This document shows positions 6,191 to 64,000 of a stretch of 64,000 nucleotides of DNA, in pieces. This stretch comes from an uncultured Planctomycetota bacterium (GTDB lineage Bacteria > Planctomycetota > Phycisphaerae > Sedimentisphaerales > Anaerobacaceae): contig CAVVRJ010000016.1 of NCBI GenBank assembly GCA_963750205.1, forward strand, positions 163,400 through 227,399, read 5' to 3'. The translations under genes were made by a program, and so were the position numbers. Numbering within the stretch: position 1 is the first letter of the stretch; every line of letters starts with the position of its first letter. The notes beneath the pieces were generated by a model, which saw only the letters and a list, made by a program, of their open reading frames with translations, had not been told where the DNA came from and did no database searches.

Positions 6191-6202
6191 TGAGGGACGT
6201 CA

Positions 6203-11181: not shown

Positions 11182-11323
11182 TCCGGACCTGTCATGCGTG
11201 TGTCTTGTCATCCCTTCGGCAAGCTCGGGGCAGGCTCTGAACGGAGCGAAGCGCAGGGAAGGATCTGGCACGCGTATTTAAAACTCCTCCCATTCGCCGG
11301 CCAGATCCTTCGCTGCGCTCAGG

Positions 11324-30868: not shown

Positions 30869-31048
30869 AGCCCGGCCCTTTCAGGAGCCCGTCTGTCTCA
30901 TCGTCGTTATCTGGGTGGCCGCCAAGCCGGAAGGTCTTGGCGATGGCCTCTGCTTCGTGGCGACGGCGTCGGCCCTTGCGTCGCGAGGCCATCTTGGCCT
31001 CGCCTTATCCGCCTGTGGCATGTTTACCGCCCGAACAGCAAGGGCCAG

Positions 31049-31084
31049 GGTCCCCAAACGCAATCAGTTCGCGTTTGGGAACCC
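31049..31084. repeat. palindromic REP-like element, family CCCAAACGCG-N6-8-CGCGTTTGGG (copy 1, intergenic between convergent genes)
   Basis: ggtccccaaacgcaatcagttcgcgtttgggaaccc forms a perfect 9-bp stem. Confidence 0.7.
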
Positions 31085-33814: not shown

Positions 33815-33910
33815 CTGGAATAATGGAATACTGGAACGATGGAATGCTGGGATTCCTGGCTCTTCACCCATTATTCCAAGATTCCAATGTTCCATTATTC
33901 CAATTCCTTA
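33815..33910. promoter_or_regulatory. divergent-promoter region containing 5x TGGAAT (8-10-nt period) followed by 5x ATTCCA, a large imperfect palindrome of the same hexamer as at 29418
   Basis: ctGGAATaaTGGAATacTGGAAcgaTGGAATgcTGGGAttcctgg...ccATTATTCCAagATTCCAatgTTCCATTATTCCAATTCC. Lies between the NfeD-like (-) and ydcF-like (+) genes. Confidence 0.45.
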
Positions 33911-33932
33911 TCCCCTGCGGAGAGCTTGAGTT

Positions 33933-39506: not shown

Positions 39507-39531
39507 GGCGTTTCTGCGCAAGTGTCAGATT

Positions 39532-41181: not shown

Positions 41182-41479
41182 CTGATAACTCCTTCTGGTA
41201 CATGGTCATAGAAATCAACGTTATCTATACTCCGATCGCAGTGAAGACCGTCGTTGGGTTTCCCAACTGCGACGCGCCGTCTTTGGGCACCCTTCTCCCC
41301 GTGTCGTGGTTTCATCATGGTCGTTTCCCTTTCAAACTGTTGGGACGATTGCCTTCTGGAGACATTCCAGCATGGCTTTCGTCAGCACATTATGCCCACG
41401 ACGGGCATTATCGAATAATGTAAAGGGTGGAACCTTAAGACAACGTGAAGGACACTGCCCGGGGGGCTTCGCAGGGCCG

Positions 41480-41560
41480 GGGGCTTCGCAGAGCCTGCCC
41501 TCAAACTGGCAATCAGCGGGAAGTGTTCCCTTGGGAATTCCGGGAGCGCCATACCTATTT
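41480..41560. repeat. diverged/partial copy R1 of the ~120-nt element (with internal duplication of GGGGGCTTCGCAG)
   Basis: gggggcttcgcagggccgggggcttcgcagagcctgccctcaaactggcaatcagcggg aligns to the 5' 70 nt of R2/R3. Lies upstream of the ABC-F gene. Confidence 0.6.
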
Positions 41561-41717: not shown

Positions 41718-43613
41718 ATGGCCTTGGTATCGCTGCAAGAGATCAGTATCGCCTTTGGCGGGCCCCCGCTGCTGGAGAGGGTCAATCTGCAAATCGACAA
41801 GCACCAGCGGATCGGTCTGCTGGGCCGCAACGGGACCGGCAAGTCGACGCTGATGAAGATCCTCGCCGGACAGGTCGTCCCGGATGCGGGGACCGTGCAG
41901 GCGGAAGCGGGACTGAAGATCGCGTACTTCTCGCAGACGATCCCGCAAGACCTCGAGGGCTCGGTCTTCGAGATCATCGCGCGCGGCCTGGGCCAACGCG
42001 GCGAATTGATGGTGCGCTACCATCGCGAGGAAGCGCGGCTGGCGGCGCATCGGGATCCCGACCACCGCCGGCTGCACCAGTTGCACGAACAACTGGACGC
42101 CCATCGGGCGTGGTCGGTGCTCGAAGAAATCGCGAGCATCACGACCCGCATGGGCCTGGACCCCGACGGGGATTACCCGGCCCTTTCGGGCGGTCAGAAG
42201 CGGCGGGTGCTGCTGGCGGCGGCGCTGGTGTGCGAGCCCGACCTGCTCCTGCTGGATGAGCCGACGAACCACCTGGATATCGACGCGATCGCCTGGCTGG
42301 AGAACTATCTGCTCGGGATGGGCAAGACGCTCTTGTTCGTCACGCACGACCGCCTGCTGCTGCGCCGGCTGGCCACGCGGATCATCGAGATCGACCGGGG
42401 GCAGTTGTTCGACTGGTCGTGCGACTACGACACGTTCCTCGCACGCAAGCAGGCGACGCTCGAGGCCGAGGAGAAGGAGTGGGAACGCTTCGACAAGAAG
42501 CTGGCCCAGGAAGAGGTCTGGATTCGCCAGGGCATCAAGGCCCGGCGCCACCGCAACGAAGGGCGCGTGCTCGCCCTGCAGAAGATGCGCGCCGAGCGTC
42601 AGGCCCGGCGCGAAAAGCTGGGGACCGCCCGGTTGAAGCTGGGCGACGCCCAGAGCTCGGGCGCGATGGTGCTGGAGGCCAAGGGCGTCGGCTATAGCTA
42701 TGACGACCAGCTGCTCATCCGGGATTTCGACGCGCTGGTCACGCGGGGGGACAAGATCGGCATCATCGGACCCAATGGGTGCGGCAAGACCACGCTGGTG
42801 CGGCTGCTGCTGGGCGAGCTGACGCCGCAGACGGGCACGGTCCGGCAGGGAACGCAACTGTCGATCACCTACTTCGACCAGTTGCGCCGCAAGCTCGACG
42901 AGGATAAGAGCGTCTGGGAGAACGTGCTGCCCAACGGGAGCACCGTGACCATCGACGGCAAGAGCAAGCACATCATCGGCTATCTCCAGGACTTTCTGTT
43001 CACGCCGGAGCGGGCCAAGACGCGCGTCCGCTACCTCTCCGGCGGGGAACGCAACCGACTGCTGCTGGCCCAGCTCTTCACCCAACCCGCCAACCTCCTG
43101 GTCCTCGACGAGCCGACCAACGATCTGGACAGCGAGACGCTGGAACTGCTCGAAGAGCTGCTGGTCAACTTCCCGGGGACCGTGCTGCTGATCTGCCACG
43201 ACCGGGCGTTTCTCGACAACGTCGTCACCAGCACCTGGGTCTTCACGGGCGCCGGCGCGATCGCAGAGTACGTCGGCGGCTACCAGGACTGGCGCCGGCA
43301 GCAGAGCCAGGAAGCGCCCGCGCCCGAGAAGCCCCAGGTTGACAAGAAGAAGCTCTACCAGGAAGCCCGCAAGGCCCGCCAAACGCGGAAGCTCTCGTTC
43401 AAGGAGTCCCGGGAGTTGGAGTCGTTGCCGGCGCTGATCGAGTCGCTGGAAGGCGAGCTGGCCGTCCTGCACCAACAACTGGCCGACCCGGCGTTCTATC
43501 GCCACCCCGACAACGTCATCCTCGCCACGAAGCGCCTGGCCGAGCTCGAAGCCCAACACGCCCAAGCCTTCGCGCGCTGGGAGCACCTCGAATCCATCGC
43601 CGCGGCATCCTGA
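41718..43613 (+). CDS. ABC-F family ATPase (two ABC domains, Uup/YheS-like)
   Basis: Two Walker A motifs (GRNGTGKST, GPNGCGKTT), two LSGG signatures, and an inter-domain linker. The 791-aa antisense ORF is a shadow. Confidence 0.85.
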   Translation: MALVSLQEISIAFGGPPLLERVNLQIDKHQRIGLLGRNGTGKSTLMKILAGQVVPDAGTVQAEAGLKIAYFSQTIPQDLEGSVFEIIARGLGQRGELMVRYHREEARLAAHRDPDHRRLHQLHEQLDAHRAWSVLEEIASITTRMGLDPDGDYPALSGGQKRRVLLAAALVCEPDLLLLDEPTNHLDIDAIAWLENYLLGMGKTLLFVTHDRLLLRRLATRIIEIDRGQLFDWSCDYDTFLARKQATLEAEEKEWERFDKKLAQEEVWIRQGIKARRHRNEGRVLALQKMRAERQARREKLGTARLKLGDAQSSGAMVLEAKGVGYSYDDQLLIRDFDALVTRGDKIGIIGPNGCGKTTLVRLLLGELTPQTGTVRQGTQLSITYFDQLRRKLDEDKSVWENVLPNGSTVTIDGKSKHIIGYLQDFLFTPERAKTRVRYLSGGERNRLLLAQLFTQPANLLVLDEPTNDLDSETLELLEELLVNFPGTVLLICHDRAFLDNVVTSTWVFTGAGAIAEYVGGYQDWRRQQSQEAPAPEKPQVDKKKLYQEARKARQTRKLSFKESRELESLPALIESLEGELAVLHQQLADPAFYRHPDNVILATKRLAELEAQHAQAFARWEHLESIAAAS

Positions 43614-45364: not shown

Positions 45365-45487
45365 GGGCTTCGCAGGGCCTGCCCTCAAATTAGCAATTAG
45401 CGGGGAGTGTTCCTTGGTGGGGACTACGAGGATCAGCCCTCAAATCAGCGCTTAGCAGATCGAGGGGCCAAAGGGGCAGGCGCTGTA
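45365..45487. repeat. ~120-nt repeat element copy R2 (imperfect terminal inverted repeats CGCAGGGCCTGCCC / GGGCAGGCGCTG)
   Basis: Near-identical to 46282..46400 and partially to 41480..41560. Lies between the TolB-like gene and vapB. Confidence 0.8.
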
Positions 45488-45777: not shown

Positions 45778-46180
45778 TGAGGGTCCTCATCGACACCTGC
45801 GTCTGGTCGAAGGTGCTGCGGCGCAAGCGCCGGACAAGGACCTCGCGGCCTTGATTGAGGACCTGATCCGGGAGGGGCGTGTCGTGTTGATCGGGCCGAT
45901 CCGACAGGAGCTTCTCTCCGGCGTGCCCAACGCGGCGCAGTTCGAGATTCTCCGCAAGGTGCTCGATCCCTTCGAGGAGATCTCCCTGAGAACGGAACAC
46001 TTCACGCGAGCCGCCGAATTCAGCAACCAATGCCGCCGCAAGGGTGTCCAAGGTTCAACCATCGATTTCCTGATCTGTGCCGTGGCCGCCCTCGAAGAAC
46101 TCCAGATCCTGACCACCGATTCCGACTTCCTCCGCTACGCCAAGCACCTCCCCATCAACCTCTGCGGCATCAGCACCTGA
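45774..46180 (+). CDS. vapC: PIN-domain toxin VapC (one apparent 1-nt deletion near 45835)
   Basis: MMRVLIDTCVWSKVLRRKR runs into a stop. The same PIN domain continues in ORF 45851..46180 (DLAALIEDLIREGRVVLIGPIRQELLSG...ILTTDSDF). A CCC->CC change would restore the frame. Confidence 0.6.
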
Positions 46181-46281: not shown

Positions 46282-46400
46282 GGGCTTCGCAGGGCCTGCC
46301 CTCAAATTAGCAATTAACGGGGAGTGTTCCTTGGTGGGGACTACGAGGATCAGCCTCCAAATCAGCAATTAGCAGATCGAGGGGGCAAAGGGGCAGGCGT
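46282..46400. repeat. ~120-nt repeat element copy R3
   Basis: About 95% identical to R2 over roughly 118 nt and lies immediately after vapC. Together with R2 it brackets the vapBC module as direct repeats. Confidence 0.8.
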
Positions 46401-46563
46401 TGGGCAAAGGGGATTGCCGCCCAGCCTGTCACGGCATCGTCTCCGGTCACCATGCTCCCGCCCCAAGCTTGTCCCCCCGCAGGCGGGGAGCGGTAAACCT
46501 CCCCCGCACGACCGCCGGGGGCGTGCCCGGCTTCACCGGATGCCGGCAGCCACAGGCGTTCTT

Positions 46564-46600
46564 GGGTTCCCAAACGCGATACGTCGCGTTGGGGAGACCC
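46564..46600. repeat. palindromic REP-like element, same family (copy 2)
   Basis: gggttcccaaacgcgatacgtcgcgttggggagaccc. Confidence 0.7.
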
Positions 46601-46660
46601 TCTCGTCCCTAGCGTGACTCGCTTCGTTTCCTGCCCCGATTCCCAGCAATGAATTGCTGG

Positions 46661-46696
46661 GCTATGGCCTGGGTTCCCAAACGCGAAACTCTGCGT
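46661..46696. repeat. palindromic REP-like element, same family (copy 3)
   Basis: gggttcccaaacgcgaaactctgcgtttggggtccc. Confidence 0.7.
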
Positions 46697-46942
46697 TTGG
46701 GGTCCCTCTTTCGCCCTCCGGGCTGGACTGGCTTTAGGGATGAGCATTTCTCCCGTATTTTGGGTTTTTGTATAACATACAGACATCGAGAGACGTCTAT
46801 TATAGAGTGCGGCTGCCGCTGGAGGGGGCCGCGACGATGCGCGGGGTCAGGGACTCCGCGGAGGGGACGGGAGCAAAGAAACGTCCATCGGGGAGAAGTG
46901 GCAGGTGGGAAGTTGGAAGTGTCAAGCCAAGAGGGGCTCCGA

Positions 46943-47442
46943 GGGGAACCCGGTCGGTGGTACAAACAAAGCCAATTGGAAGAGAGTTTCAAGTTGGAGG
47001 TGTCAAGTGTCAAGAGGGCAAGGCAGTGGTCCGTGGTCCGAGCTTCAAACTTCACACTCCACACGGCAAACTCGGCCGACGGCCATTCGCGCGAAACGAA
47101 GCCAATCGAGCGCCCCGACTCCGCGTTTGGTGGTTCCTCCGTCCGCCAGAAACGCCTGGCGGCGTCACTACGAACGAGGCGACCGTGCCAAACAAAGCCA
47201 ATTCCCGGCCGGGCCCGCCGTCCGCTTTGGCCGCCCGCCCCTGGGGTCGGGAGTCTGCCGCACACCAAAGATGCGAAACAAAGCCAATTTGCCGCGAGGA
47301 CGTAATGACGGCCAATCGGGAGATTGGCGGTCCCAGGAAATATGCGAAACGAACCCAATTTCCGGGGGAGGGTGCGGACTGGCCCCGGTCGGCCAAGGCG
47401 GGCAGACCCCCGCTGGGGTTGGGCGTGCGAAACAAAGCCAAT
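46943..47442. repeat. array of six ~19-nt direct repeats (consensus rTGCGAAACAAAGCCAATTy) with irregular 50-110-nt spacers, in a 1.1-kb ORF-free region
   Basis: Copies at 46943, 47091, 47186, 47272, 47343 and 47425. Each spacer contains its own short hairpin (for example CGCCAGaaacgcCTGGCG, GCCAATCgggaGATTGGC). The overlapping multi-frame ORFs here are Arg/Gly-rich shadows. Confidence 0.7.
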
Positions 47443-47774: not shown

Positions 47775-49487
<1,713 letters not shown>

Positions 49488-49568: not shown

Positions 49569-50447
49569 ATGTCGATGAAGATTCTACCGCAGCAGTCTCG
49601 TTCTTATGGCTCTTTCGTCGGTCCAGGCGCAGGAGCAGAAGACGCCGGCCGCCGATACGGGCGATGCCTCGTACAAGCTCGTCTGGGCGGATGAGTTCAA
49701 CTACAACGGTGTGCCGGACCCCAATAAATGGACCTACGAGCGCGGTTTCGTGCGTAACCGAGAGCTGCAATGGTATCAGCCGGAGAACGCCCGGTGCGAG
49801 AACGGCATGCTCATCATCGAGGCCCGGCGCGAGCGCAAGCCGAATCCCGGACGCCCAGGCCGACGCTGGGAAGCGCCGCGGGAGCCGGGAATCCGCCGAG
49901 TACACCTCCGCGAGCGTGACCACGAAGGGTCTGCACAGTTGGCAGTACGGCCGGTTCGAGATGCGGGCGCGGATCGACACGCGGCCCGGTCTGTGGCCCG
50001 CCTTCTGGACGGTGGGCGTCGCAGGCCGCTGGCCCCAGGGCGGCGAGATCGACATCATGGAATACTACAGGGGCATCCTCTTGGCCAACGTCGCCTGGGG
50101 CTCCAAGCAGCCCGGGACGGCCAAATGGCATCGACAGCAAGAAGCCCCTCACGGAGTTCGGCGATCCTGATTGGTCCAAGAAGTTCCACGTCTGGCGGAT
50201 GGACTGGGACGAAAAGAGCATCAAGCTCTACGTGGACAACCTGCTGCTCAATTCCACCGACCTCAAGGACACCGTCAACGAGGACGAAGAGGCCAAGAAC
50301 CCCTTCCACCAGCCCCACTACATCATCCTGAATCTCGCCATCGGCGGCACCTCCGGCGGCGATCCCTCCGCCACCGAGTTCCCCGCCCGGTTCGAAGTGG
50401 ATTACGTGCGCGATCTATCAGAGGCAGACGCAATAGAGACGGCGTAG
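49569..50447 (+). pseudogene. GH16 beta-glucanase (laminarinase-like), >=3 apparent frameshifts
   Basis: Signal peptide MSMKILP... Fragments 49606..50331 (KLVWADEFNYNG...), 49484..50170 (WPAFWTVGVAGRWPQGGEIDIMEY, catalytic ExDxxE) and 50199..50447 (KFHVWRMDWDEKSIKLYVDN). Confidence 0.65.
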
Positions 50448-50511
50448 GGTGGGGCTTGCCCCACCGACACGGCGAATGCGCAGGAATTCGGTGGGGCAAG
50501 CCCCACCCTAC
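50444..50511 (+). terminator. long hairpin (GTAGGGTGGGGCTTGCCCCACC ... GGTGGGGCAAGCCCCACCCTAC), candidate terminator and repeat-family member
   Basis: It begins at the TAG stop of the GH16 gene. The stem is 22 nt and the loop 24 nt. Confidence 0.5.
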
Positions 50512-50530: not shown

Positions 50531-51796
50531 CTACCGGCGCGTGGTCGCGGAAGGCGGGTGATCCAATATGGGGCCGATGTCGAGGACGTACATCTGCCGG
50601 CCCAGGCCCTCGTGAGTGGCATCGATGGAGACGATCCGGCTATTCCGGCTAAGCCTCGGATGCAGGTCTACTCGGAAGATGCCGTCCGGGGCGGTGGATT
50701 TGAGCTTGGCCAGCAGCACGAACCGTTTGCGTCGGCTTGTGGAACAGGAACAGGTACTGGTAGCCCTTGATGGCGTAGGTGTCGGAGATGAGCCAGTCGC
50801 CGCCGGGACCGGGGATCGAGCTGGCGTGACCGTTGTACGAGGATTGAAGAGCCGGCCCTGCGCCTTGCCAGTCCCGTCGTCCCGATAGAGATAATAGCCG
50901 CGGCCGTCCAGAAGGGTCTGGTCGTCCTGCCACTCGTGATGACTCGGCTGGTCGTACAGGAAGCGAACGTCCGTGCCATCGGCCTTCAGGGAGTAGGCTT
51001 TGTCAAAGTTGTTCTGGGGGTCTTTGACGAACGCGATGAAGCGCGACCCGGAGAGGTTCCAGCCCTCGCGGAAGATGTAGAGACAGCCGGAGGAGGGCGG
51101 GCCTTGGGGATAGGCGATCCGGGCCATCTTCTCCAGGCTCAGCAGGAGCACGGCGTCGCCCGTATTCAGGTCCATTTTCCAGATGCCCGTTTCCTTGGGA
51201 GCGTACTGGTCCGCGTACTTGTCCTTGATCCCGACATAGGGGGTGCCGCCATGCTTCATCCGCTCGAAATCGTGCGTCAGGGCGCAGGTGCCATCGGGCG
51301 ACAGCGTGTAGATGGGCCGGGGCAAGGTTCGTCTCGCCCCCGTCTTGAAGTTGTACACCCGGCACACGTAGCCGGCGCCATCGTCCGAGCGGTCATTCCA
51401 CAGGATTTCCTCCGAGCCGGGCCGCCATTGCAGGCGGGCGCCCTGCTGCCAGTTCCACGCCGTCGTCGCGCCGATCTGGGTCCATTTGTACCCGTCTTGC
51501 AGATCGATGACGCCGATCTCTGCACAGTCGGTCGGGCGAACGTCGCGGTTCTGACAATGGACTCTCATGCCGAGGATGTACCGGTCCGTCGGATCGAATT
51601 GCAGGCACTGATAGAAGAAGAAGCCGGTGTAGATCGGGTTCTCGCTCGTTCCCGGCTCGGAGACGCGGATGAGCTTCGGATACCGGGCATTCTCGCCTGC
51701 CATCAACTCCGCGAAGCTGCCGTAGGTCGTGTACGGCGGACCGTCCTGCGCCGCGACCGCCGCCGACACAACCAAAGCCGCCAGCAATACGGGCAT
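50531..51796 (-). CDS. hypothetical secreted beta-propeller-like protein (oligogalacturonide-lyase-like?), two apparent frameshifts
   Basis: Signal peptide MPVLLAALVVSAAVAAQ. The out-of-frame patch at about 50650-50940 is restored by frame 50649..50933. Confidence 0.3.
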   Translation of the reverse strand: MPVLLAALVVSAAVAAQDGPPYTTYGSFAELMAGENARYPKLIRVSEPGTSENPIYTGFFFYQCLQFDPTDRYILGMRVHCQNRDVRPTDCAEIGVIDLQDGYKWTQIGATTAWNWQQGARLQWRPGSEEILWNDRSDDGAGYVCRVYNFKTGARRTLPRPIYTLSPDGTCALTHDFERMKHGGTPYVGIKDKYADQYAPKETGIWKMDLNTGDAVLLLSLEKMARIAYPQGPPSSGCLYIFREGWNLSGSRFIAFVKDPQNNFDKAYSLKADGTDVRFLYDQPSHHEWQDDQTLLDGRGYYLYRDDGTGKAQGRLFNPRTTVTPARSPVPAATGSSPTPTPSRATSTCSCSTSRRKRFVLLAKLKSTAPDGIFRVDLHPRLSRNSRIVSIDATHEGLGRQMYVLDIGPILDHPPSATTRR

Positions 51797-51833: not shown

Positions 51834-54800
51834 CTACCAGCGGAAGAACCGATACGGATCGTCCCATTCCTGGGGCTGGTCGAGGTAGAGGCCATTCGAC
51901 CAACGCCTTTCCGGCTTCGCCGTGTCTACGGGCTGGTGGAAGCGGTCCAGCAGCGGCGTCGAGCCCGAGACGCCCAGATTCGCCAGCAGCCGCGAAACCA
52001 GGAAGGACACATGCCGGTGCGTCCGGCGGAGGTTGGACGTCGAGCCGTCGAACTGCCAGGGCGCAAGCTGGCAGAACACGACATTCGCTCCTTCCGCCTG
52101 GGCGAGGACGCCGTCCCCCACGACTTGGGCCCCCGCCGTGACCAGAGGCAATTGGCGCGGGTCGCGGTTGTGAACATCCGCCGGCCCGACCCCGGCCAGC
52201 GGCGAATCCATGCCCGAGGGCTCAAAGTAGGCCGCGATGTGCTCCGCTTTCTTCATGGTGACTTTGAAAGGCAGCCACGCATTCGTGTCCGCTTCGTCCA
52301 GTCCGAGGGTCAGGACGCTGCCGCCCGTTTTGATCCAGTCCGCGACCTGGGCCGCCAATTTCGGTCCGCCGCCCGGACCCACGATGAGGACTTGATGGGG
52401 CGACAGGCTCCCGCCTTCATAGGAACACAGAGATACGCCGGTGGATTCGAGATAGCTCTTGCCCGCAGGGTCGCCGACGTAGACGGCCTCGCGGCGTGGG
52501 GCCGGCTTCCAAGCCGATACGTACCGCAGGAGATTGCGGACCAGTGCATCCGCCGCTGGCTCCGCCTCGGTGCGTCCCGTCACGTCTATCTGGCAGAAGA
52601 GCATCATGCCTTTGCCTTCGCGGTACTCCAGGAGCGGGCTGTACTGGAGGGCAAAGCCGCCATCAAGGATCGGCAGGAAGTCGCCGCAGGCGGGCTTTTC
52701 GATCAGGACGGAGGCGACGTTGCCTTGGTTTCCGCAGCGCCATACCTGCGTAACCGGAATGTCACACCATTGAATAGTCGGCCCATAGCGTGGCCGCATC
52801 TCGTACTTCAGTCGTGGTGGCTGGATCGTCGCCGCGCCGCGCCAATCGTGCAGATGCTGGGCAGCGAGTCCCGCCACCAGAGGATGGTCCGGCACGCGGG
52901 CAAAGACCTGCCGCAGCCCATATTGCGCCACGCGGAAGCCGAACCGCTGTTCCAGAACCTCGGGTGTCTGCTCGAACATGATTACTTTCAGGCCGTCGCG
53001 CACCCGGCTGGATATCCGGCGCCGGCCCTCTGACCGACAAGGCGGCCTTGCCCACGATCAGAGTATCATAGGTGGACAAATCGGCGTCCGGCTCCACGGA
53101 TCGAGCCGGGACGCCGAGCTTACTCAGTAATGTGCCGGTCTCCCCTTTGGGGTCGAACAAGGCGATCTTTCCGGCCTGTCGGCACCGCCGCCGTCGGCAG
53201 CGGCAGGATATCAATGGGGAGACTGTCTGTCTGGGTCTCGCCGGTGCTGAATTGGAACTGGGCCTGGTAGCACATAGCTCCCGGGCGCCAGCGTGGTCGG
53301 CAGCTCGAAGCGCAGCCGAATGCGCTCCGCGTTGGCCGGTGGCGACAACCGCCGTGGCGTTGCCGGCCATCGCTTGTGGGAAGTTGCAGCGACCATTGGT
53401 GCAATCTGCACGACAGTCACGTCTCACGAGAGTTGTTGATGACGACAATCTGCTTCTCGACGATGTCGCCGGGGCGGAAGATGTGGTCCTTGCTGGTGAA
53501 GCGGGCGGGCTTGCCGGCGATGTAGGCCAACAGCGGCTGGTTGTTGCGGATCAGGGCTTGGGCGGCCTCGGTCGCGATCCAGTCGGAGACGTTGTAGGCC
53601 AGGTCCATCCGCTCGTACCGCTGATCGCTGTAGTCCGGACTGAATCCCGGCCGCTGCAAGGCGTCCCAATCCACCTTGAAGTTCCTGGCGGCGCCGGTCC
53701 ACGCCGGGACGCAGCTTCCAGTAGTGCCCGCACTCCCACGGCGAGATCGCGGACACGCCCCACGTGCGGAAGGCCCGCCAGTTGTCCGTGAGATACTTGG
53801 CGAAGACCGGGTAGCGCTCGTCGAACTGCGTGGAGCCCACCTGGACGGGATAGTCCCAGCGGTGCCAGACCCGGCCGGCCTGGAACTGTTTCGCCTCCCA
53901 GCGCAGGTCGGTCTTCTCCGCCTCGCTGATCTGGAAGGCCTTGTCGCCGAAGAACTGGGCGTTCCACTCGGCGATGCAGAACTCCCACGGCACGACGGCA
54001 CTGCCGAACTCGCGCTGGCCCTTGTACCAGCCGCGATACATCGTCCAGTCCCAGGTGAACGGGGCGCCATACTCGCACATGAACGCCGGCTTGACGCCCT
54101 ACCGTCGCCCAGTGCTCGAACCAGTCGGACAATTCCTGGATCGGGACGAAGTTCGGGTAGAAGTTGATCGGGTGCATCGAGCCGAGATTGCCCGAGGCGT
54201 GGTGATAGACGATCCGGCTGGGGTCCATGTGCTTCACGATCGCCTCGGCCCGCAAGGCGAGCTTCACGTTCCGCATGCCCCATTGGTCGCGGTCGTCGTG
54301 AATGCCGTCGATCATGTCCGGGTTCATGTCCTCGCTGTAGCCGCGTGGCGTTGTGGCTCATCGCGTACATCACGACGGAAGGATGGTTCTGGGCGGCGCG
54401 CACGTAGAATTCCGCATGGCGGGCATAGCCGTTATTGCGGTCGGCGTCGGCGGCTTGCCACTCGTAGTGACTGAAATGCGGCTGCGAGAACGAGACGAGC
54501 ATCCCTACGTCGTCCGCGGCCCGCAGAATCTCGGCAAAGCCCAGGTGCGAGCCCGGATCGCAGCCGTAGTTGTGGGTGTAGACAAAGTTGATGCCGATGC
54601 TCTTGAGACGCTTGAGGCTCTCGCGGGCGGCGTCGTAGGTGGAGAGCGCCGCGCTCACGCCGGCATTATCCACCGGCAGGGCACAAAGGAAGATGCGCGT
54701 GCCGTTGAGGTAGAAGTCCCGGCCGTCGATCCACAGCTCGCGGAACCCGAACCGGACCGGTCCAGGTAGTGTCGAGGGCGTCCTTGTGTCGCCGGCGTCC

Positions 54801-55765
54801 ACCAGCGAGACCTCCAGATCGAATTGGTTCTGGGGCGTGTGGATGTCCCAAAGCTGGTCGGGCATCCATTTCTCGGTCGTCGCGATGCGGCCTTCCTTAA
54901 GGTCGCTCGCCTGGAACGGCTTTGCTCGTGAATTCCTTGATCGTGCGGCCCGTCCTTCATGATCCGCGCGCGAAAGGCGTACTGTGCATCCGCTGCGAGT
55001 CCTTCAACCGCCGCATCGAGCGTGATCTCCTGCTTCCGCACCGAGGTGTCCACCCGCACGTCCGCGATGTGCGGCCCGGAGGGCGTGCTCACCAGGTAGA
55101 CGTCGCCGCACAGGCCCCGCCGGGCGACGGAGCCCTTCACTTCCCGGGCCGAGGCGCTATCGGTGTAGGAGAGCATGACGCCTTTGAGCGGCAGGGCCAC
55201 TACGAGCAGACTGAGCCGATAGGTGCCGCCCGGACGGCAGACCGACCGTGAGGTCCACCGCGCCGCCCGGAAACCGGGTTTCGCCCGCCTTGGCGCCGTC
55301 GAGGTACACGGCCGCGAAGGAATTCAGGTATTCCATGCTGAGCGCCACGCGACGGCCGGCCCAATCGGCGGGGATCGCGATCTGGCGCTCGTACCAGGCC
55401 GCCGTGATGCCGCCGAGCCGGCGGTCCTTCCAGCTCGGATGACGTGTAGAGCGTCTGGCAGTCTTTCTGCATATAGTCGCCGATGCCGGGCCAGCACGCC
55501 GGGACCTTGAAATAGCCCCAGTTCGCCGTGGGCGTCTGCTCCGCTTTGGCCTCCGCCGGCTGCCACCGCCAAAGTCCGTTGATGCAGATCCGCTCCCGGG
55601 TGGGCGTCGTCTCGTGGTACGCCTTGCCCAGGTCCCAAACCGCCTTCACACCCGCCGGCAAGTCCACCGCGGATGGCGGCGGCGTTTGGGCCTGCAGATT
55701 CGCAATTCCCGAGGTGCCGGTCGCCAGCGTGGCGACCACGGCGATGGATCAGCTTCTTCATATTA
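51834..55765 (-). pseudogene. very large secreted glycoside hydrolase (GH2-like jelly-roll + TIM-barrel architecture), >=7 apparent frameshifts
   Basis: Colinear minus-strand fragments 55324..55899 (MKKLIH...), 55200..55739 (signal peptide plus TANWGYFKVPACWPG), 54655..55200, 53417..54865 (ELWIDGRDFYLNGTRIFL...GINFVYTHNYG), 53551..54327, 53424..54080, 52762..53448 and 51834..53003. Confidence 0.4.
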
Positions 55766-56075
55766 TGGTGCTCCTTAAAGATCGCGACAACAGTATACAC
55801 TCCCTTCGCGCCTGCCGTAGAGCAAGACGGCGGCAGATATGCGGTATGGCAGGAATGTCGCCCCCTTGCTCCGGCAGACAAGAAAAAGCCTAGCGACACC
55901 TTCTCCAGGTTGAATTATCTGACCCTCGGGATATTAACCTCTGGAGCTTTTTTGGTATAATACGTGAAGGGTAAAGGAGTTCCCGGGTTTGCTCTGGGCA
56001 AGCCAGAGGGTGGAGGTGTGCCACCAGCGTCACGATCATGAGAATACGGGTGTCGGGTGTCTTTGAGAGGGTCTG

Positions 56076-59000
56076 ATGATGAGCCGATCGATCAAGAGTC
56101 TGATGGGCGTTCTCGTCGTACTGCTGGCGGCGCACAGCTGCCCGGGCAGAGCTGAAACTGGTAGCGAATTTCGATGGCATGACGGGCAATCCGGACGGCC
56201 AGGCCTGCAACGGCGTCCTGGGCGGTACCTTGGATACCGAGAGCGAAGCCACCGGCAACGCCTCCCTCCCCACGCAGGATGGAAGCGTCACCCTGAGTGT
56301 CATTGGTCATAGCTCCGGCACCCTGGCCCGCGCCATCGGGTTCAACGGCATCACCAACCCGATCGATAAGGGCGAGACGGGCATCGGGTTCTTCCGGTTC
56401 ATGATGCCTACGGGCGGCACGGTGCGTTCCCACATGGGCTTGATCGCCGATGCGACGACCAATCCCATCAACAGCACGAACACCGCGGACCCGAAGACGG
56501 TGGCGGCGGGATTCCGTCTTGTGGATAACGGGACTGGGTACGACCTGCTGACCACGGATGGCGCGACCACCCTTACTACCGGTTTGGCCCGCAGCCAATG
56601 GTACAACGTCTGGATCGTGGCGGACCATGCGGCCAAGACGTTCGACCTGTATGTCAGCAAGGCGGCGGGACCGGCGGGCGCGCCCACGCTGCCCACTGCG
56701 GCGGACCTTGTGAAAGGTGGCATACCGTTCGCAACGGCGGCGACAGGCTCCCTGAACGGCATGATCTTTGCCTGTCCCATCAGTCCCACGGGGTCCGGCC
56801 AAGCCACCCGCATCTACGTCGATGAAATCTGGTGGGATGGAGATCAGGGGCTGTCCAAACCGACCACGGCCAAAAATCCCGGTCCCGGCGACAAAACGCA
56901 GGACGTGGCCCAGGACGTGGTCTTAAGCTGGACACCAGGACTGACGGGGGCCAAGCATGACGTGTATTTCGGGGCTTCCCTGGACGACGTCAGCAACGCC
57001 GACAGAACCAAGCCGCTGGCCGTTTTGGCCGGTCAGGCCCAGGACGCCAACACGTTCGATCCGGCCGGCCTACTCGCGTTCGGCCAGACCTATTACTGGC
57101 GCGTCGACGAAGTCAACGCCGCGCCGAGCACCACGATTTTCAAGGGCAACGTCTGGTCCTTCACCGTCGAGCCGTATGCCTATCCGATCCAGAAGGTCAC
57201 GGCCACCGCGTCGAGCGCCAGCTGATGGAATGGGACCGGAGAAGACCATCGATGGCTCGGGTCTGAACGCCAGCGATCAGCATGCGACGGATCCGACGCA
57301 GATGTGGCTCAGCGCCACGGTGCGGCGCAGCCGGCGTGGATTCAGTACCAGTTTGACGCCAGTCTATAAGCTCGATCGACCTGCTGGTCTGGAATTCCAA
57401 CCAGTTGCTGGAGTCGGTCCTCGGCTTCGGGGCCAAGAGCGTGACGGTGGAGTACTCCACCGATGCCGCCACCTGGACGAAGCTGGGCGATTTTGAGTTT
57501 GCCCGGGCCTACAGGTGCCGCGACTTACACAGCCAACACCACGGTGGATTTCGCCGGCGCCAGTCGCCAAGTACGTCCGGCTGACGATCAACAGCAACTG
57601 GGGCGGCGTGCTGGCCCAATACGGCTTGAGCGAGGTGCGGTTCTACTATATTCCGGTTCTGCCGCGGGCGCCGCTCCCGGCGGTCGGCCCAGACGGGCGT
57701 CGCCCTCGATACCATGCTGAGCTGGCGGCCCGGTCGGGAGGCGGCCTCGCATCAGGTCTACTTCAGCACCGACAAGCAGGCGGTGGCCAATGGCACAGCC
57801 CCGCGTCAAGACGGTCAGCAGCGATAGCTTCAATCCCGGCCCGCTGAACCTGGGAACCACCTACTACTGGAAAGTCGCCGAGGTCAACAACGCCAAGACG
57901 CCCAACACCTGGACCGGCGACGTCTGGAGCTTCACCACGAAGGAATACCTCGTCGTGGAGGACTTCGAGAGCTATAACGACGATGACAACCGCATCTACG
58001 ACACCTGGATCGACGGCTACGAGCGACAGGCAGCAGCGGCTCGGCCGTCGGCTACCTGGCGGCCCCGTTCGCCGAGCAGAAGATCGTCCACGGCGGCAAA
58101 CAGTCGATGCCGTTGGAATACAACAACGTCAAGACGCCCTATCTACAGCGAAGCCAGCACGGACTTCACCCCCGTCCAGAACTGGACCGTGGATGGGGCC
58201 GACACGCTCTCGCTGTACGTGCACGGCCAGCCGGTCGGCTTCACGGAGACCTCTGGGGGTCATATGGTGATGAGCGGCACGGGCACGGACATCTACAACA
58301 CGGCGGACCAGGGCCGGTTCGTCTACAAGCAGCTTACCGGCGACGGCACGATCATCGCCCAGGTCGATAATCTCACCAACACCAACGCCTGGGCCAAAGC
58401 CGGCGTCATGATCCGCCAGAGCCTGGACGCGGGCTCGTCCTGGGCCTATTCGCTGGCCAGCACCGGCAACGGCGTGCACTTCCAGGCCCGGCTGCTCGCC
58501 GCTGGGGCCGCCACGAGCGACACGACCCTGACGCTGCCGACCTCGCAGACCACCGCTCCCGATCCCGGTGTGGGTCAAGCTCGAACGCAAGGGCAATCAG
58601 TTCAACGCCTACTACTCGACCGACGGGACTACTTGGACGCCGAATCCGTGGAACCCGCAGACGATTACGATGGGCGCCAACGTCTACATCGGCTTGGCCG
58701 TGACCAGTCACCAGTCCGGAGCGGTGACCGCAGGCGGAGTTCTCCTCCGTCGCCACCACAGGCACCGTCACCGGCGCCTGGCAGTCGGTCTCGCTGGGCA
58801 TTGCACAGCCCGCCGGCAACACGCCGGATACGCTCTATATCGCCGTACAGGACAGCAGCGGTCACAAGGCCACGGTGACCTATCCCGATTCGTCTATTCT
58901 CACGACGGACGATTGGACGCAGTGGAGCATTCCGCTGAGCAAGTTCACCGCGGCGGGCGTCAAGACCAGCAGCATCAAGAAGCTGAGCATCGGTATTGGC

Positions 59001-59081
59001 GACAAGACGAAATCCGCTCCAGGCGGCGCCGGCCTGATCTTCATCGACGACATCGCCTTCGGCCATCCGGCGGGGCAGTAA
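56076..59081 (+). pseudogene. large secreted multidomain protein (repeated beta-sandwich modules, discoidin-like and ConA/LamG-like domains), >=5 apparent frameshifts
   Basis: Signal peptide MMSRSIKSLMGVLVVLLAAHS. The module G(Q)TYYWRV/KV(D/A)EVNxA...VWSFT(V/T) occurs 3 times. F5/8-type-C-like segment NWGGVLAQYGLSEVRFYY. Lectin-like segment RFVYKQLTGDGTIIAQVDNLTNTNAWAKAGVMIRQSL. Fragments 56179..57225, 57790..58878 and 58568..59134. Confidence 0.4.
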
Positions 59082-59258
59082 TACGGACCGTGCTTAGGTC
59101 GTGTGCCCCGTTTGTCATCCTGAACGGAGCGTAGCGGAGTGAAGGATCTGGGCATCGAACGGGAGAAACCTCCCCTTCGGTGGCCGGATCCTTCGGCTTC
59201 GCCTCAGGATGACAGAGTGGAAAGTGCCGCACGAACTCCTGCGAATCCGTGGGAGAAT

Positions 59259-61529
59259 CTACTGAGCAGGCGCCAGTTCGAGGATTTCCTGGCCGTACAC
59301 CGACAGCGTCAGTTCCACGCCCGCAGATTGCAGTTGGCGGCCCGTGAACTCACCAAGCCGCCGCTCGCCGAAGCAGGCGGTCACGACGTACCGCCGCTCG
59401 GGCCGGACCCACGGAACGTTGATCGCCCGGCGTTCGGCGCCGCCGCTGCCGCGCACCACGACGACCGCGCCGCAGCCGTCGTCGTTCAGCTTGCCCCACC
59501 AATGCCAATCGTCGTCGTTCGGGGCGGGCACCCCGCTGAATTGAAAGTGGTGATAGATGTCCCAGGATCGATGCAAGCGGTTGACCAACGCAAAACGCTT
59601 CTGATAGTGCGCCAGGTGCTCATCGGAAAGCGTGCTCAGGTCGCCCGAGAAAACCAGCGGGGCGCCGAGCAGCCAACTGACGACCTGCCGATCCTGGACC
59701 TCCGGGGTCAGGCTGCCCTGGTGATCCTCCGTGGCCGCCCCGTAGAATTCGAGGCAATACAGCGGCAGGCCACGATGCGAGTAGAAGATCTGCCGGGCCT
59801 GGTAGCAGGCGGCGATCAATTCCGCCCGCAGCTTTTTCGGGTCCACGACGGGCGCGGGCTGGCCCGGCCGGGCACGCGGGGCGAGGCCGCGGCAGGCATT
59901 GGGCGAGACGTGATAGCGGGCCGCGTGCTTCAACGCAGCCAAGTCGCATGGGGCCCCGGGGGTATCCCAGTAAATCTCGTGGGTCATCTCGTTCATCACG
60001 CCGGGCGCGAGGGCCCGGAGACGGTCCTGAGCCTCCAGCAATCCCCGCAAACCGCGCAGAACCGACTCCTTCCTCGTGCGATTGGGATGACCTTCGGCCA
60101 GGTCGCCGTAGATGACGTTGCTGAAGTCCTGCTTGAAGTAGACGGCACCGTAACGCTCGTGCAGCCGGGCCAGGTCCTGGGCATAGAACTCGCGCCAGGG
60201 CGTGGTGAAGCTCATCGCGACGCCACCCAGCCGGGTGACCACAGGCAGCGAGCGAGCGTCGGGCATGGCTTTGCGGTCGGGCGAATTCGGATCGCGAAAG
60301 CAGGAAAGCCACAGCCCCAGCTTGAGACCACGAGAACGAACGTAATCCGCGGTGGCCGCGAAATCCGGAAATCGGGCCGGGTTCGGCTCCGTGCCGAGCC
60401 GGTCCCGCTGCCAGCCGTCGTCCATGAGGAATTGCACGAAACCCGGCCCGGGCCGCACGGTCGGCCTGTCGGCGGATCATCTTGTCGTTGAGGTCCGGAC
60501 CGAACGTGGCCCACGTCAGCCACTGCGGAGCATCACACGACAGCCGCGGGCCGATGATGCCGATGTGCTGCGATAAGAAGTCCTGGAAAGGACCTTCGAC
60601 GGTGCGGTCCAGGGGCGTCGAGCGGGCCGAGATCGTCTGCTCCACCGGGCCGCTGAAAGCATAGAGGAACACCGGCTCCGAGACGAATCGTTCGCCCGGT
60701 CCCAGCACCCACTCGAAGATCGCCGGGTGATAACCCGTGGCCCCGTGCCGGCGATCGTCCGCAGCCCCGAGGGGATCTCGCTGGCCACAATCACACCGAA
60801 AGCGCCGTCGGCCGAGGTGCAGCCGACCATGCTCGTCGGAACCCCATAGCCGTCGGGAGTCAGCGGCACGCGTTCGGAAACGCTCGGAGCCAGCGCAAAG
60901 TCATCGATCGTCAACTTCTCGATCTTGCGCCAAACACTGCCCTCATTGACAACCTCCACCCACTTGCGCACGACCGGCGCGCCGCGATAGACCTCATAGA
61001 TGACCGTGAGGCCCAGTCCGTCCAACGCACTCTCTCTTCGAGCACGCGCATGGACGGTCAACCGAGACACATCGGGAGCCGGCGTAGAGACTTCGGGCGT
61101 TGCGAGCAGGAAGGTATCCGCCCATTGACTGGCGCCCACGCGCATCGGCTCGACCCAGCGGGTCGTCTGGCCGAGGGCCGTGTCATCGTACGTGGCGGGA
61201 TCGTTATGGTGGCCCGGATAGGGATTGAAGGTCTTCACACTGTCGATGGTGCCACCTTCACCCGGCTCGAGCCCTTTCGGCTTGCCGTTCGGCTCGGCCC
61301 GCGTGACGGTGAAGCTTACTTCGGTGGCCGGCCCCGTCAGCAGATCATGTCCATCGACGTGCAGGTGCGTCGTGCTCAGATTCCCGTTCGTCAGATCGAT
61401 CATGCGCTCCAGGATTCCCGCCGAGACGCGTACCTGGTGATCGGAAACCTCGATCGGTTGAGCGGCACGGGTTCGAACCGGCAGGCACACCAGCAAAACC
61501 GAGACCAGTAAAAACAGCAGGCTCTTCAT
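59259..61529 (-). CDS. alpha-galactosidase-like glycoside hydrolase (clan GH-D, GH36-like), >=2 apparent frameshifts
   Basis: Signal peptide MKSLLFLLVSVLLVCLPVRTRA in ORF 60516..61598. Catalytic-domain signature FLMDDGWQ in ORF 59259..60458. An intermediate frame 59620..60708 bridges the two. Confidence 0.45.
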
Positions 61530-61680: not shown

Positions 61681-64000
61681 AATGAGAGTAAGACGATCCT
61701 GCAGTCTCGTGTCGGCGCTGTTGGTCTGCGCGGGGTTCGGTGGGGCAAGCCCTGCCCTGCACGCCCAGACCACCTCCGGCGGCCTCAATCTCGCCGTCGT
61801 GGCCAAGCCTTCCTGCTCCTACGTCTCCGGCGACACCACGCCGGCGGCCCTCAATGACGGCTACGATCCGCGCAGCTCGCGCGACAACCGCCGGGGGTCG
61901 TACGGCAACTGGCCCCGCAGAGGCACGCAATGGGTGCAGTACGATTGGAGCCAGTCCATCAGCACCAATAAGATCGACGTGTACTGGTGGGACGACCAGC
62001 AAGGTGTTCGTCTGCCCAAGGTCTCGCGTCTGCTCTATTGGAACGGCGACGCCTTCGTCCCCGTGACCAACGCCTCCGGGCTCGGCGTGGCGGGTAACCG
62101 CTACAACACTACGACCTTTGACGAGGTCCAGACGGCCAAGCTCCGGCTGGAGATCGACGCCAACGATGCCTATTCGACCGGTATCCTCGAATGGAAGGTC
62201 TACGATTCCGGCAAGTCGCCCGACTTCCCCCCGATGGTCACGGCCGGCATCGACCGCGACACGGTGCTGGGAGGCAAGACCTATTTGTCCGGGACGATCA
62301 AGGCGCTCAAAGGCGACGCCGGAACGGTGACTTGGAGCAAGGCCTCCGGGCCCGGCACAGTCACGTTTGAGGACGCCAAAGCGGCAGTCACGACGGCCAC
62401 GTTTTCCGAGAAGGGCACGTACGTCCTGCAATTGACAGCAGAGAAGAACTCTGGTGGGGCAAGCGGGACCCCAAACGCGAACGATTCGCGTTTGGGAGCC
62501 CGACCCACCCTACGTGCCTCGTCCACGCTGCTCGTTAAAGTGGTCTCTCCGCCGCCGGCGGACCGCCTGGATGTGGTCTACACGAAGGAATACCAGATCG
62601 ACAGCCCCCTGTGGAATTCACGGGCCAAGGCCCTGATCGTCCACTGGATTCCCCATTGCATCGACCAGATCAACGACCCGAATCTCCGGCAAGGCCAGGG
62701 CGGGATCGACAACTTCATCGAAGCGGCCAAGGCCCTCCGCGGCGAGGCCCACGGGCGTCACAAGGGCTATGTCTTCTCCAACGCCTGGGTGCATCAGACG
62801 GTGGAGTCGATGTGCCTGGCGCTGATGGTCGATCCGCGCGGCGATCCGGAGATCATCAAGGCCCAGGAGAGGATGAAGGCCACTCTGGAGGACTGGATCC
62901 CCAAGATCCTGGCCGCCCAGGAACCCGACGGCTACCTCCAGACGGCATATACGCTCTCCGACCGCAATCGCTGGCCCCAGCGCTGGAACCCGCCGCAGCG
63001 AGGCAACCACGAGGGGTACGTCGCCGGCTACTTCATCGAGTCGGCCATCAATCATTACACGCTGACCAACGGCACGGACAAGCGCCTGTACAACGCCGCC
63101 AAGAAGCTGGCCGATTGCTGGGTCGCCAACCTCGGCCCGGGCAAGAAAGACTGGTACGACGGTCACCAGGAAATGGAGCAGGCCCTGGTGCGGTTCGGCC
63201 GATTCGTCAACGACATGGAAGGCCCGGGCAGCCACGGCGATAGTTACATCAAATTGGCCAAGTTCCTGCTCGACAGCCGCAAGGGCGGCAGCGAATACGA
63301 CCAGAGCCACGTCCCGGTCCAGCAACAGTACGAGGCCGTCGGGCACGCGGTCCGGGCCTCCTACACCTATTCGGGCATGGCCGACGTGGCTGCCGAGACG
63401 CACGATGTCGATTACCAGAGCGCCGTCATGAGCCTCTGGGACAACATGGTCAACAAGAAGTATTACGTCACGGGCGGCATCGGCAGCGGCGAGACCTCCG
63501 AAGGCTTCGGCCCCAATTACTCGCTGCGTCAGAGCGCCTACAACGAGTCCTGTTCGACCTGCGGCCTGATCTTCTTCCAATACAAAATGAACCTCGCCTA
63601 CCACGACGCCAAGTACGCGGACCTGTATGAGGAGTCGCTCTATAACGCCCTGCTCGGCTCGATCGATCTGGAAGGCAAGAACTTCTATTACGACAACCCG
63701 CTGGACTCGCGCGGCCCCCGCTATGACTGGCACGTTTGCCCGTGCTGCGTGGGCAACATCCCGCGCACGCTGCTGATGATCCCCACTTGGACCTACGTCA
63801 AGGGCAAGGACGGCCTCTACGTCAACCTGTTCATCGGCAGCACGATCAACGTGGAGAAGGTCGCGGGCACCAACGTCCAAATGGTGCAGCAGACCGATTA
63901 CCCCTGGAGCGGCAAGGTCGCCATTACTGTCAACCCCGAAAACGCCAAGCGGTTCTCGATTTACGTGCGCGTGCCCAACCGCACGACGAGCGAGTTGTAC
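61681..64000 (+). CDS. GH127 beta-L-arabinofuranosidase (DUF1680) with N-terminal discoidin-like domain; 3' end beyond window
   Basis: Not in the ORF track because there is no stop within the window; I translated it myself from ATG 61681. Signal peptide MRVRRSCSLVSALLVCAGFGGA. GH127 Cys cluster DWHVCPCCVGNIPRT. A roughly 60-nt palindromic repeat lies in frame at about 62455-62515. Confidence 0.7.
62455..62515. repeat. composite palindromic element inside the GH127 CDS, in frame
   Basis: The right half of the GTAGGGTGGGGC...GGTGGGGCAAGC...CCACCCTAC family carries an embedded copy 4 of the CCCAAACGCG family: ggtggggcaagcGGGACCCCAAACGCGaacgattCGCGTTTGGGAGCCCGacccaccctac. It encodes SGGASGTPNANDSRLGARPT, which sits between the discoidin-like and GH127 domains. 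Confidence 0.65.

Follow-up and report, generated by a model that had tools for sequence, protein, structure and literature searches.

We analysed a stretch of 64,000 nt (hereafter, the window) from an uncultured Planctomycetota bacterium of the Sedimentisphaerales (contig CAVVRJ010000016.1, positions 163,400 to 227,399), focusing on a 61-nt composite of two nested palindromes. The outer one is of the repetitive extragenic palindromic (REP) type, and the composite lies in frame in a gene for a secreted glycoside hydrolase of family 127 (GH127) at the right end of the window. The gene, the protein domain concerned and the parts of the composite are:

61682 to 64000, plus strand: gene for a secreted GH127 (beta-L-arabinofuranosidase family) protein, partial, continuing past the window end
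62234 to 62545, plus strand: PKD/Ig-like domain of this protein (residues ~185-288), from AlphaFold2 secondary structure and Pfam
62453 to 62464, plus strand: outer REP, 5' part GGTGGGGCAAGC, comprising the 5' arm, the loop and the first 2 nt of the 3' arm; encodes G258-S261
62465 to 62503, plus strand: inner palindrome, 39 nt (GGGAC CCCAAACGCGAACGATTCGCGTTTGGG AGCCC GA); encodes G262-R274 (GTPNANDSRLGAR)
62504 to 62513, plus strand: outer REP, 3' part (CCCACC plus the CTAC tag); encodes P275, T276, L277 and the first base of codon 278

From the ATG at 61682 (plus strand) the translated open reading frame (ORF) runs for 773 codons without a stop, up to the window end. The encoded protein has a signal peptide, an N-terminal beta-sandwich, a PKD/Ig-like domain and the GH127 catalytic and middle domains; the catalytic domain matches Pfam PF07944 at 5.8e-67 and the middle domain PF20736, and the PKD matches (PF22352 and PF00801, residues 197-261) are sub-threshold. 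An earlier reading of the window made without database searches (hereafter, the sequence-only reading) had called the N-terminal domain discoidin-like. The family assignment of this beta-sandwich is not supported, the Pfam match to F5_F8_type_C_2 being sub-threshold (E = 0.0045, 18 bits for a cut-off of 27.8). A protein search returned orthologues at 73-88% identity, of which those with a source name are labelled as Planctomycetes or Phycisphaerae metagenome-assembled genomes (MAGs), with one exception labelled Verrucomicrobiae. The ratio of nonsynonymous to synonymous divergence (dN/dS) against four orthologues was 0.10-0.11, with dS of 0.55-0.66, and the gene overall is under purifying selection.

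The composite at 62453-62513 is real and reads GGTGGGGCAAGC GGGACCCCAAACGCGAACGATTCGCGTTTGGGAGCCCGA CCCACCCTAC, and its translation equals the peptide given by the sequence-only reading. Its middle 39 nt are a palindrome of the family CCCAAACGCG...CGCGTTTGGG, which interrupts a GTAG-tagged REP hairpin (GGTGGGGCAAGC|CCCACCCTAC), and in the ORF frame the segment is read as S257-GGAS-GTPNANDSRLGAR-PT-L277, the composite covering residues 258-277. The 5' part is identical to the REP at 50490-50501 and is joined to the 3' part without a gap in two related contigs, L001 and L002; joining the two halves of the composite restores the 22-mer GGTGGGGCAAGCCCCACCCTAC, with the GTAG tag of 62504-62513 on the antisense strand. 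The outer part had been described as a half-copy of the hairpin at 50444, which is correct as to the family but not as to the extent, since it is a complete REP singlet, equivalent to a single unit of the doublet at 50444, with the inner element lodged in it. The proposal of two distinct, nested REP-like families is upheld, and both have repeat copies in the window.

As a single strand the composite forms a three-tier coaxial hairpin, with a fold of -38.8 kcal/mol as RNA (z = -4.3) and -24.7 kcal/mol as DNA (z = -5.4), better than 200 of 200 shuffles. It is a hairpin within a hairpin, not the tandem alternating REP mosaic of a bacterial interspersed mosaic element, and no linker motifs were seen. 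Direct reading of the inner 39-nt element revealed zero stop codons in all six frames. Rfam 15 at gathering score gave no match in the whole window, and ARAGORN found no tRNA or tmRNA genes there, indicating that the repeats are not tRNA-derived.

The occupancy of the insertion site was compared in an alignment of the best 120 GH127 proteins and, at the DNA level, in the orthologue-encoding contigs L001, L002 and L003. A total of 118 orthologues read ..LTAEKGS-LSGSSTL.. with no added residues at the site, and the two closest, P0011 and P0013, read ..EKGSGGAS-PTLHASSTL.. with six added residues (the intact REP only), so the in-frame insertion suspected from the sequence is borne out by the alignment. 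All 19 added residues (57 nt) were present in the window sequence only. In the DNA, the site is empty in L003 (GGCTC|CCTGAGC) and holds the intact REP TCTGGTGGGGCAAGCCCCACCCTAC in L001 and L002 (net +18 nt), and relative to the latter two the REP of the window carries precisely 39 additional nt (62465-62503) directly behind GGTGGGGCAAGC. Both ends of this addition are unambiguous and not shiftable by one base, and thus there is no target-site duplication. With no duplicated bases at filled versus empty sites and an inner unit of only 39 nt, the insert does not qualify as a miniature inverted-repeat transposable element, for which a size of ~70-300 bp, a target-site duplication and the terminal inverted repeats of a parent insertion sequence are expected. 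It does behave as an in-frame insert of the kind known from Rickettsia palindromic elements (RPEs), i.e., occupancy varies among orthologues, the frame is kept, no stop is introduced and the host protein is conserved.

L001 and L002 share a nucleotide identity of 0.882, and either one is 0.854-0.871 identical to the window. Given that these two are mutually nearest, a 39-nt gain in the window lineage and a loss in the ancestor of L001 and L002 are equally parsimonious. Across the window, L001 and L002, the outer REP at the orthologous site has 0/22 variable positions, whereas 78 of 300 flanking columns (26%) are variable; the chance of zero variable REP positions given such flank variation is P = 0.0013. 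Immediately ahead of the REP the window has the codon AAC, where the orthologues have GGT or GGC, and the window flank is thus like the REP-flank consensus GAGAAGAATC found next to other composites.

The AlphaFold2 model, which was built from a 46-sequence alignment and has a mean pLDDT (predicted local distance difference test score) of 70.7, shows strand E245-256, coil at 257-275 (pLDDT <50 at 260-265) and strand E276-288. The insert is predicted to be the tip of the last beta-hairpin in the PKD/Ig-like domain, as a coil between two strands of that domain, i.e., in a surface loop as for RPE-like inserts, and this tip probably projects away from the modelled fold. The sequence-only reading had taken the same residues for a linker between the discoidin-like and GH127 domains; the model and Pfam instead place them inside the PKD/Ig-like domain, between its last two strands.

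The outer REP consists of GTAG plus GGTGGGGC / TT / GCCCCACC, with an 8-bp GC-rich stem and a 2-nt loop. Both 50444-50465 and, in antisense, the joined composite halves show the structure of GTAG REPs (unpaired GTAG, stem of 6-9 bp, loop of 2-4 nt). Other copies of this family in the window are:

50444 to 50511, no strand assigned: reference REPIN-type inverted doublet (GTAGGGTGGGGCTTGCCCCACCGA, 20-nt spacer, TCGGTGGGGCAAGCCCCACCCTAC), intergenic, between convergent genes
61739 to 61760, plus strand: degenerate right-hand REP GGTGGGGCAAGCCCTGCCCTGC (19/22 positions), in the signal-peptide coding region (FGGASPALH)

The 24-nt arms of the doublet (50444-50467 and 50488-50511) are 100% complementary. 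Searching with the 18-nt core GGTGGGGCAAGCCCCACC at ≤3 mismatches gave 6 matches in the window versus 0.14 expected from shuffles. The copies in the window comprise two intact, one split and one degenerate, placed as one intergenic doublet and two intragenic copies. At ≤2 mismatches, 32 copies were detected in 1.05 Mb of related sequence, in which the intragenic fraction is biased because the loci were chosen through the GH127 gene. Doublets with the arrangement of REPINs (REP doublets forming hairpins) were found at 50444-50511 in the window, at 4685-4739 and 9908-9962 in L001, at 4278-4332 and 7298-7352 in L002, and at 10049-10103 in L003, and inverted doublets of the outer REP were also found in L089 and L118, among others. 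The copy at 62453-62513 is a singlet, not a doublet.

The 22-mer GTAGGGTGGGGCTTGCCCCACC of the outer REP (50444-50465) is identical to Chom-22, a natural REP of Cardiobacterium hominis and candidate recognition element of a REP-associated tyrosine transposase (RAYT), for which hairpin and G-tetraplex structures were reported in vitro (Charnavets et al. 2015, PMC4690160). This identity spans phyla, as the host there is a gammaproteobacterium and here a member of the Planctomycetota, with convergence or transfer of a REP/RAYT system as candidate causes.

The signal-peptide match, noted at 61737 in the sequence-only reading, does belong to the outer REP family, and 61739-61760 is the remnant of a REPIN doublet. 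An intact in-frame doublet, translated as VGWGLPHQIGFGGASPTLQ, occupies this site in L001 (9908-9962), L002 (4278-4332) and L003 (10049-10103), and the left arm of the L003 doublet is from a different sub-family. Four occupancy states were detected overall, i.e., none (L149), the left REP (L150), the doublet (L001-L003) and the right REP (window). The gene calls of P0011 and P0013 begin downstream of the doublet, and their ORFs are nonetheless open from an upstream ATG; the truncated N-termini are apparently due to the REPIN in the signal-peptide region.

The neighbouring GH2-like ORF of L001 also has an in-frame outer-family doublet, VGWGLPHQTGPGGASPTLQ, that is absent from the L003 orthologue, and two further in-frame inserts formed by other GTAG- or GTGG-tagged hairpins. 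The window/L001 lineage carries many intragenic REPs. The extra inserts in the GH2-like ORF, at 6201-6281 and 3717-3830 of L001, comprise a GTAGCATGGGCG..CGCCCATG + CACGGGCAAGATGCCCGTGCTAC doublet and a GTGGCGAGGGC.. element with a nested CCCGCCGGCAAGATGCCGGCGGG hairpin, and the L003 orthologue has neither.

Besides the nested copy at 62465-62501, the inner palindrome family is represented in the window by four copies, giving a total of five:

31048 to 31084, no strand assigned: solo copy, intergenic, between convergent genes
33548 to 33582, no strand assigned: degenerate copy, upstream of a minus-strand gene
46564 to 46704, no strand assigned: two solo copies (46564-46600 and 46670-46704), intergenic, in a repeat-rich non-coding stretch

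The copies reported by the sequence-only reading are real and 46564 is correctly placed; the other two begin at 46670 rather than 46661 and at 31048 rather than 31049. The pattern CCAAACGC-N4-14-GCGTTTGG has 3 exact matches in the window versus 0.00 expected. A scan of a genome collection with CCCAAACGC-N4-14-GCGTTTGGG returned at least 111 stretches. Among the matches listed, 79 of the 82 with the 26-nt core were from Planctomycetota MAGs (labelled Pirellulales, Planctomycetaceae, Phycisphaerae and Sedimentisphaerales), most of which have a GGGnn/nnCCC extension that lengthens the palindrome to ~36 nt, whereas those from other phyla have other lengths and no such extension. The inner palindrome was not detected in L001-L003. 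It is a family separate from the outer REP, Planctomycetota-wide and ~36-39 nt in length. A full-text literature search found no description of the inner palindrome sequence, and the family appears to be undescribed before.

Among the matches listed, 6 of 76 inner copies in GC-rich loci were in frame within long coding-like ORFs. The test used, based on GC content at third codon positions, is conservative and missed L001 10676 and the REP copies in the signal peptide. When a phosphoglucomutase (L043) with a solo inner element is aligned to the solved structure PDB 9vfy, the element coincides exactly with a 13-residue gap, and another solo element in a histidine kinase (L112) is in frame in a loop of the ATPase domain; for an oxidoreductase (L013) the PDB alignment ends ahead of the insert.

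To evaluate nesting, the inner element was excised, the flanks were refolded and a GTAG/CTAC-tagged hairpin of ≥6 bp was demanded. Among the matches listed, 12 of 95 inner copies (12.6%) restored a tagged hairpin versus 1.05% of random positions, a ~12-fold difference; the untagged category is uninformative, as 43% of controls form some 6-bp hairpin. Contiguous complementarity of the flanks was no better than the control as a nesting metric, since the guest is placed asymmetrically in the hairpin that hosts it. At least three REP families (GGTGGGGC.., GGCGAGCG.. and GCACGGGCA..) are represented among the hosts, and in each the guest sits at the junction of the loop and the tag-proximal arm.

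Scanning metagenomes for the junction of the window composite gave 32 stretches with many different flanks, several of which are the right-hand member of a REPIN doublet, and composites with conserved junctions are also present in L089 and L101. All composites of this REP share a common junction and a composite-specific 'GA', and the window composite is 60/61 identical to that of L128 at an unrelated locus, suggesting that the composite propagates as a unit. Of 12 distinct type-A composite loci, 5 have an inner part of 38 nt and 7 one of 39 nt. An intrinsic unit length of 39 nt as the cause of the kept frame is ruled out by the five loci with 38 nt, and frame preservation is thus survivorship and not a property of the element; an insertion that shifted the frame would have ruined the gene, which is why the copy in GH127 is in frame.

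Many metagenomic composites are surrounded by a third palindrome layer, TTGCACCC...GGGTGCAA, with flanking direct repeats CAAACAAACCCAATT (L117, L125-L127, L129-L131, L137, L142, L145 and L147). Similar repeats, AAACAAAGCCAATT, are found in the window at 46964 and 47430.

GTAG-tagged REPs have been described in >80 species, Planctomycetes included, with the most intragenic repeats in Opitutus terrae, of the Planctomycetes-Verrucomicrobia-Chlamydiae (PVC) bacteria, in which dimers encode 20-30 aa and two inserts may occur per ORF (Di Nocera, De Gregorio and Rocco 2013, PMC3733652). The elements in the window are like these in the GTAG tag, the 6-9 bp stem, the occurrence as singlets and inverted dimers, the location wholly inside ORFs of known proteins, and the short peptides encoded there. 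They differ in that REPs were reported there inside other palindromes, whereas here the REP hosts an unrelated palindrome in its own hairpin, and in that the host gene is for a secreted glycoside hydrolase instead of a DNA-repair or replication gene. The sequence-only reading considered in-frame placement unusual, which is overstated, since GTAG REPs are documented in frame in several species, O. terrae and Rickettsia among them, also as dimers and as pairs in a single ORF (PMC3733652).

The RPEs were the first in-frame palindromic repeats found in functional genes (Ogata et al. 2000, Science 290:347, as cited in PMC3733652 and PMC3184786). As with RPEs in these accounts, the elements here are selfish palindromic repeats that are in frame, translated and tolerated in functional protein genes, but they are shorter (22 + 39 nt versus ~105-146 nt), have no sequence relation to RPEs and belong to a different phylum. 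The composite here is nested, and nesting of two families is not described for RPEs in the same accounts. The inverted doublets with a short spacer (50444-50511; L001 9908-9962) and the GTAG recognition tetranucleotide are shared with REPIN/RAYT systems (Nunvar 2010; Bertels and Rainey 2011, PMC3116915), and the near-identical copies may form a population as they do there. In contrast to REPINs, which are described as extragenic, several copies here are intragenic, and no cognate RAYT was found in the fragments searched.

The use of a REP hairpin as the insertion target of a second element is shared with IS1397, ISKpn1 and ISPpu9. IS1397 and ISKpn1 insert in the loop of enterobacterial palindromic units. 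ISPpu9 of P. putida is an insertion sequence that targets REPs (PMC8450116). All three encode a transposase, unlike the guest here, a ~39-nt non-coding palindrome with no further terminal inverted repeats and no target duplication. To the extent covered by the searches, the novel points are the inner family, the finding that it associates with REP hairpins in which the REP acts as host, and the three-state series in one gene; in-frame REP/RPE insertion is already documented, and the GH127 case extends it and does not overturn it.

Taken together, we consider it highly probable that 62453-62513 represents two non-coding REP-type palindromes that were inserted in the GH127 coding sequence and persist as a tolerated passenger. 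The outer unit is a single GTAG-tagged REP, from a family that elsewhere forms REPIN-type inverted doublets, and the inner unit a member of a separate palindrome family seated at the junction of the REP loop and the GTAG-proximal arm. Together they add 57 nt (19 codons) and, in the model, make the final beta-hairpin of the PKD/Ig-like domain longer at its tip. They may be tolerated as the tip probably projects away from the fold, there are no in-frame stops and the added length is divisible by three. A RAYT-type HUH tyrosine transposase that works on single-stranded hairpins is the probable agent by which the REP moved or was copied, and the inner palindrome may insert site-specifically into REP hairpins, or the composite may spread as a unit.

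Several points weigh against this interpretation. We only infer mobility, and the presence and absence of the insert among orthologues could also reflect loss. The lack of variation in the REP beside its variable flanks is unexpected for a purely neutral passenger and points to homogenisation, hairpin selection or repeated recent insertion. The structural model is of moderate confidence, and no RAYT was detected by phmmer with E. coli RayT (E ≤ 10) among ORFs of ≥80 aa in the window and 114 loci (~1 Mb), which says little as these are genome fragments and RAYTs are usually single-copy. The REP invariance, the AAC codon flank and the occupancy states of the signal peptide together suggest turnover, by re-insertion or copying, at a fixed site, and not one drifting ancient insertion.

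If 62453-62513 is a tolerated insertion, the nested state could have been reached by more than one route. The composite may have arrived as a unit, either by independent entry at a hot spot, by overwriting of the resident REP, or as the ancestral state followed by precise excision in the L001/L002 lineage, and we place this just short of an even chance. It agrees with the composites in the 32 metagenome stretches, L089 and L101 with their conserved junctions, the single-nucleotide difference from the L128 composite, the resemblance of the AAC codon to the REP-flank consensus (though this similarity was spotted post hoc), and the REP being invariant in three lineages amid variable flanks. The four occupancy states and the sub-family swap at the signal-peptide site indicate that turnover at fixed sites happens. 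However, this route would demand that the position was re-used exactly, that conversion took place on flanks with only 10-12 nt of homology, or that excision was precise.

Alternatively, a simple REP could have inserted in the common ancestor of the window, L001 and L002, with a free inner palindrome entering it later in the window lineage only, a sequential scenario that we hold with some reserve as rather below an even chance. The simple REP at the identical site in the closest relatives L001 and L002 fits this order of events, as do the solo copies of inner elements, the clean breakpoints without duplication, and the inner elements at the equivalent position in at least three other REP families, which indicate that nesting recurs. 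Yet the shared junction and composite-specific 'GA', and the near-identity to the L128 composite, suggest common descent of the composites and not separate nesting here, and the 39 nt could as parsimoniously have been lost as gained, L001 and L002 being mutually nearest.

Exaptation would mean that the repeat peptide now serves as a linker or loop with a function of its own, or that the mRNA hairpin has become regulatory; the sequence-only reading proposed it in the form of a domesticated linker, and we regard it as very unlikely. The intact frame in a gene under purifying selection, the conservation of the REP sequence beyond its flanks, the strong predicted mRNA hairpin (with the fold energy given above) and the REPIN-derived codons that form part of the signal peptide in some orthologues (VGWGLPHQIGFGGASPTLQ) could all be cited for it. 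But 118 of 120 orthologues function without the insert, which is at a hairpin tip and not between domains, the same elements are found in unrelated proteins, intergenic copies occur at lengths not divisible by three, and dN/dS averages the history of the whole gene and is silent on the insert itself. The claim of domestication is thus not sustained: type-A composites elsewhere, intergenic ones included, have inner parts of 38 or 39 nt, the frame reflects survivorship and no evidence of function was found. That the resemblance is due to chance, or that the repeat led to a chimeric join or similar artefact in the assembly, is scarcely credible: although the many frame changes in neighbouring window genes make assembly quality or locus integrity questionable, the breakpoints against L001 and L002 are exact, the chance expectation of the motifs is ~0, the ORF is open over 773 codons, dozens of other assemblies independently contain this composite, and after a chimeric join the coding sequence would not match the orthologues on either side of the insert as it does.

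Returning to insertion and tolerance, a broader proposal that joins these observations is roughly as likely to fail as to hold, with the balance slightly towards failing. An undescribed ~36-39-nt Planctomycetota palindromic mobile element (GGGnnCCCAAACGCG-loop-CGCGTTTGGGnnCCC) would target the junction of loop and tag-proximal arm in GTAG REP hairpins, the composites then spreading as units. It would have been written repeatedly into proteins (GH127, phosphoglucomutase, histidine kinase) as a 13-residue loop, commonly xPKRDxSRLGx, and fixed intragenic REP sites, including that of the signal peptide, would be renewed or homogenised instead of decaying (0/22 versus 26%).

The rest of the window has further repeats and disrupted genes. 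Upstream of the GH127 gene, the genes at 51837-55676 and 59262-61475 (both minus strand) align with their L001 orthologues only if the frame is switched many times, at least six times in a GH2-like gene and twice in a 777-aa alpha-galactosidase-like gene; their intact neighbours are the GH127 gene (773 codons) and a 388-aa gene at 50552-51703. The pattern points to pseudogenes, or to assembly indels confined to that stretch. Between them, 55672-59266 has ~3.5 kb extra compared with L003, in which the matching gap is 119 bp. Two long ORFs in this extra segment (56179-57225 and 57790-58878) have no Pfam match, and no transposase was identified there. Another palindromic repeat, GTCATCCTGAACGGAGCG...GGATCCTTCGGCTTCGCCTCAGGATGAC at 59102-59217, shares 87-89% identity with Planctomycetota MAG loci (L064, L010 and L057), and an inverted repeat related to it is found at 11250-11319.

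A 121-nt direct repeat with 94% identity (45365-45485 and 46282-46402) brackets a PIN-domain ORF at 45851-46180 (Pfam 1.4e-09), with a third, partial copy at 41474-41529. The 29-nt inverted pair at 39488-39516 and 47147-47175 is 90% complementary, contains GTAGTGACGCC...GGCGTCACTAC and may be a second GTAG-tagged REP family in the genome. At 33816-33902, just upstream of an ORF starting near 33930, there is an inverted repeat with 36-nt arms, a 15-nt spacer and GGAAT-like pentamers (TGGAATAATGGAATACTGGAACGATGGAATGCTGGG / complement). The genes at 41802-43613 and 47775-49487 encode paralogous ABC-F type ATPases, and the direct-repeat families D1, D2, D4 and D6 correspond to the Walker and signature motifs of these paralogues, i.e., ordinary paralogy instead of mobile repeats.

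The orthologues of one gene have kept three states, i.e., the empty site, the REP only, and the REP with a nested palindrome, and this GH127 series shows selfish non-coding palindromes turning into protein sequence. Such in-frame repeat inserts also mislead gene callers. If the inner palindrome truly targets REP hairpins, it would provide a handle on site choice by a hairpin-recognising, probably HUH-type, machinery.

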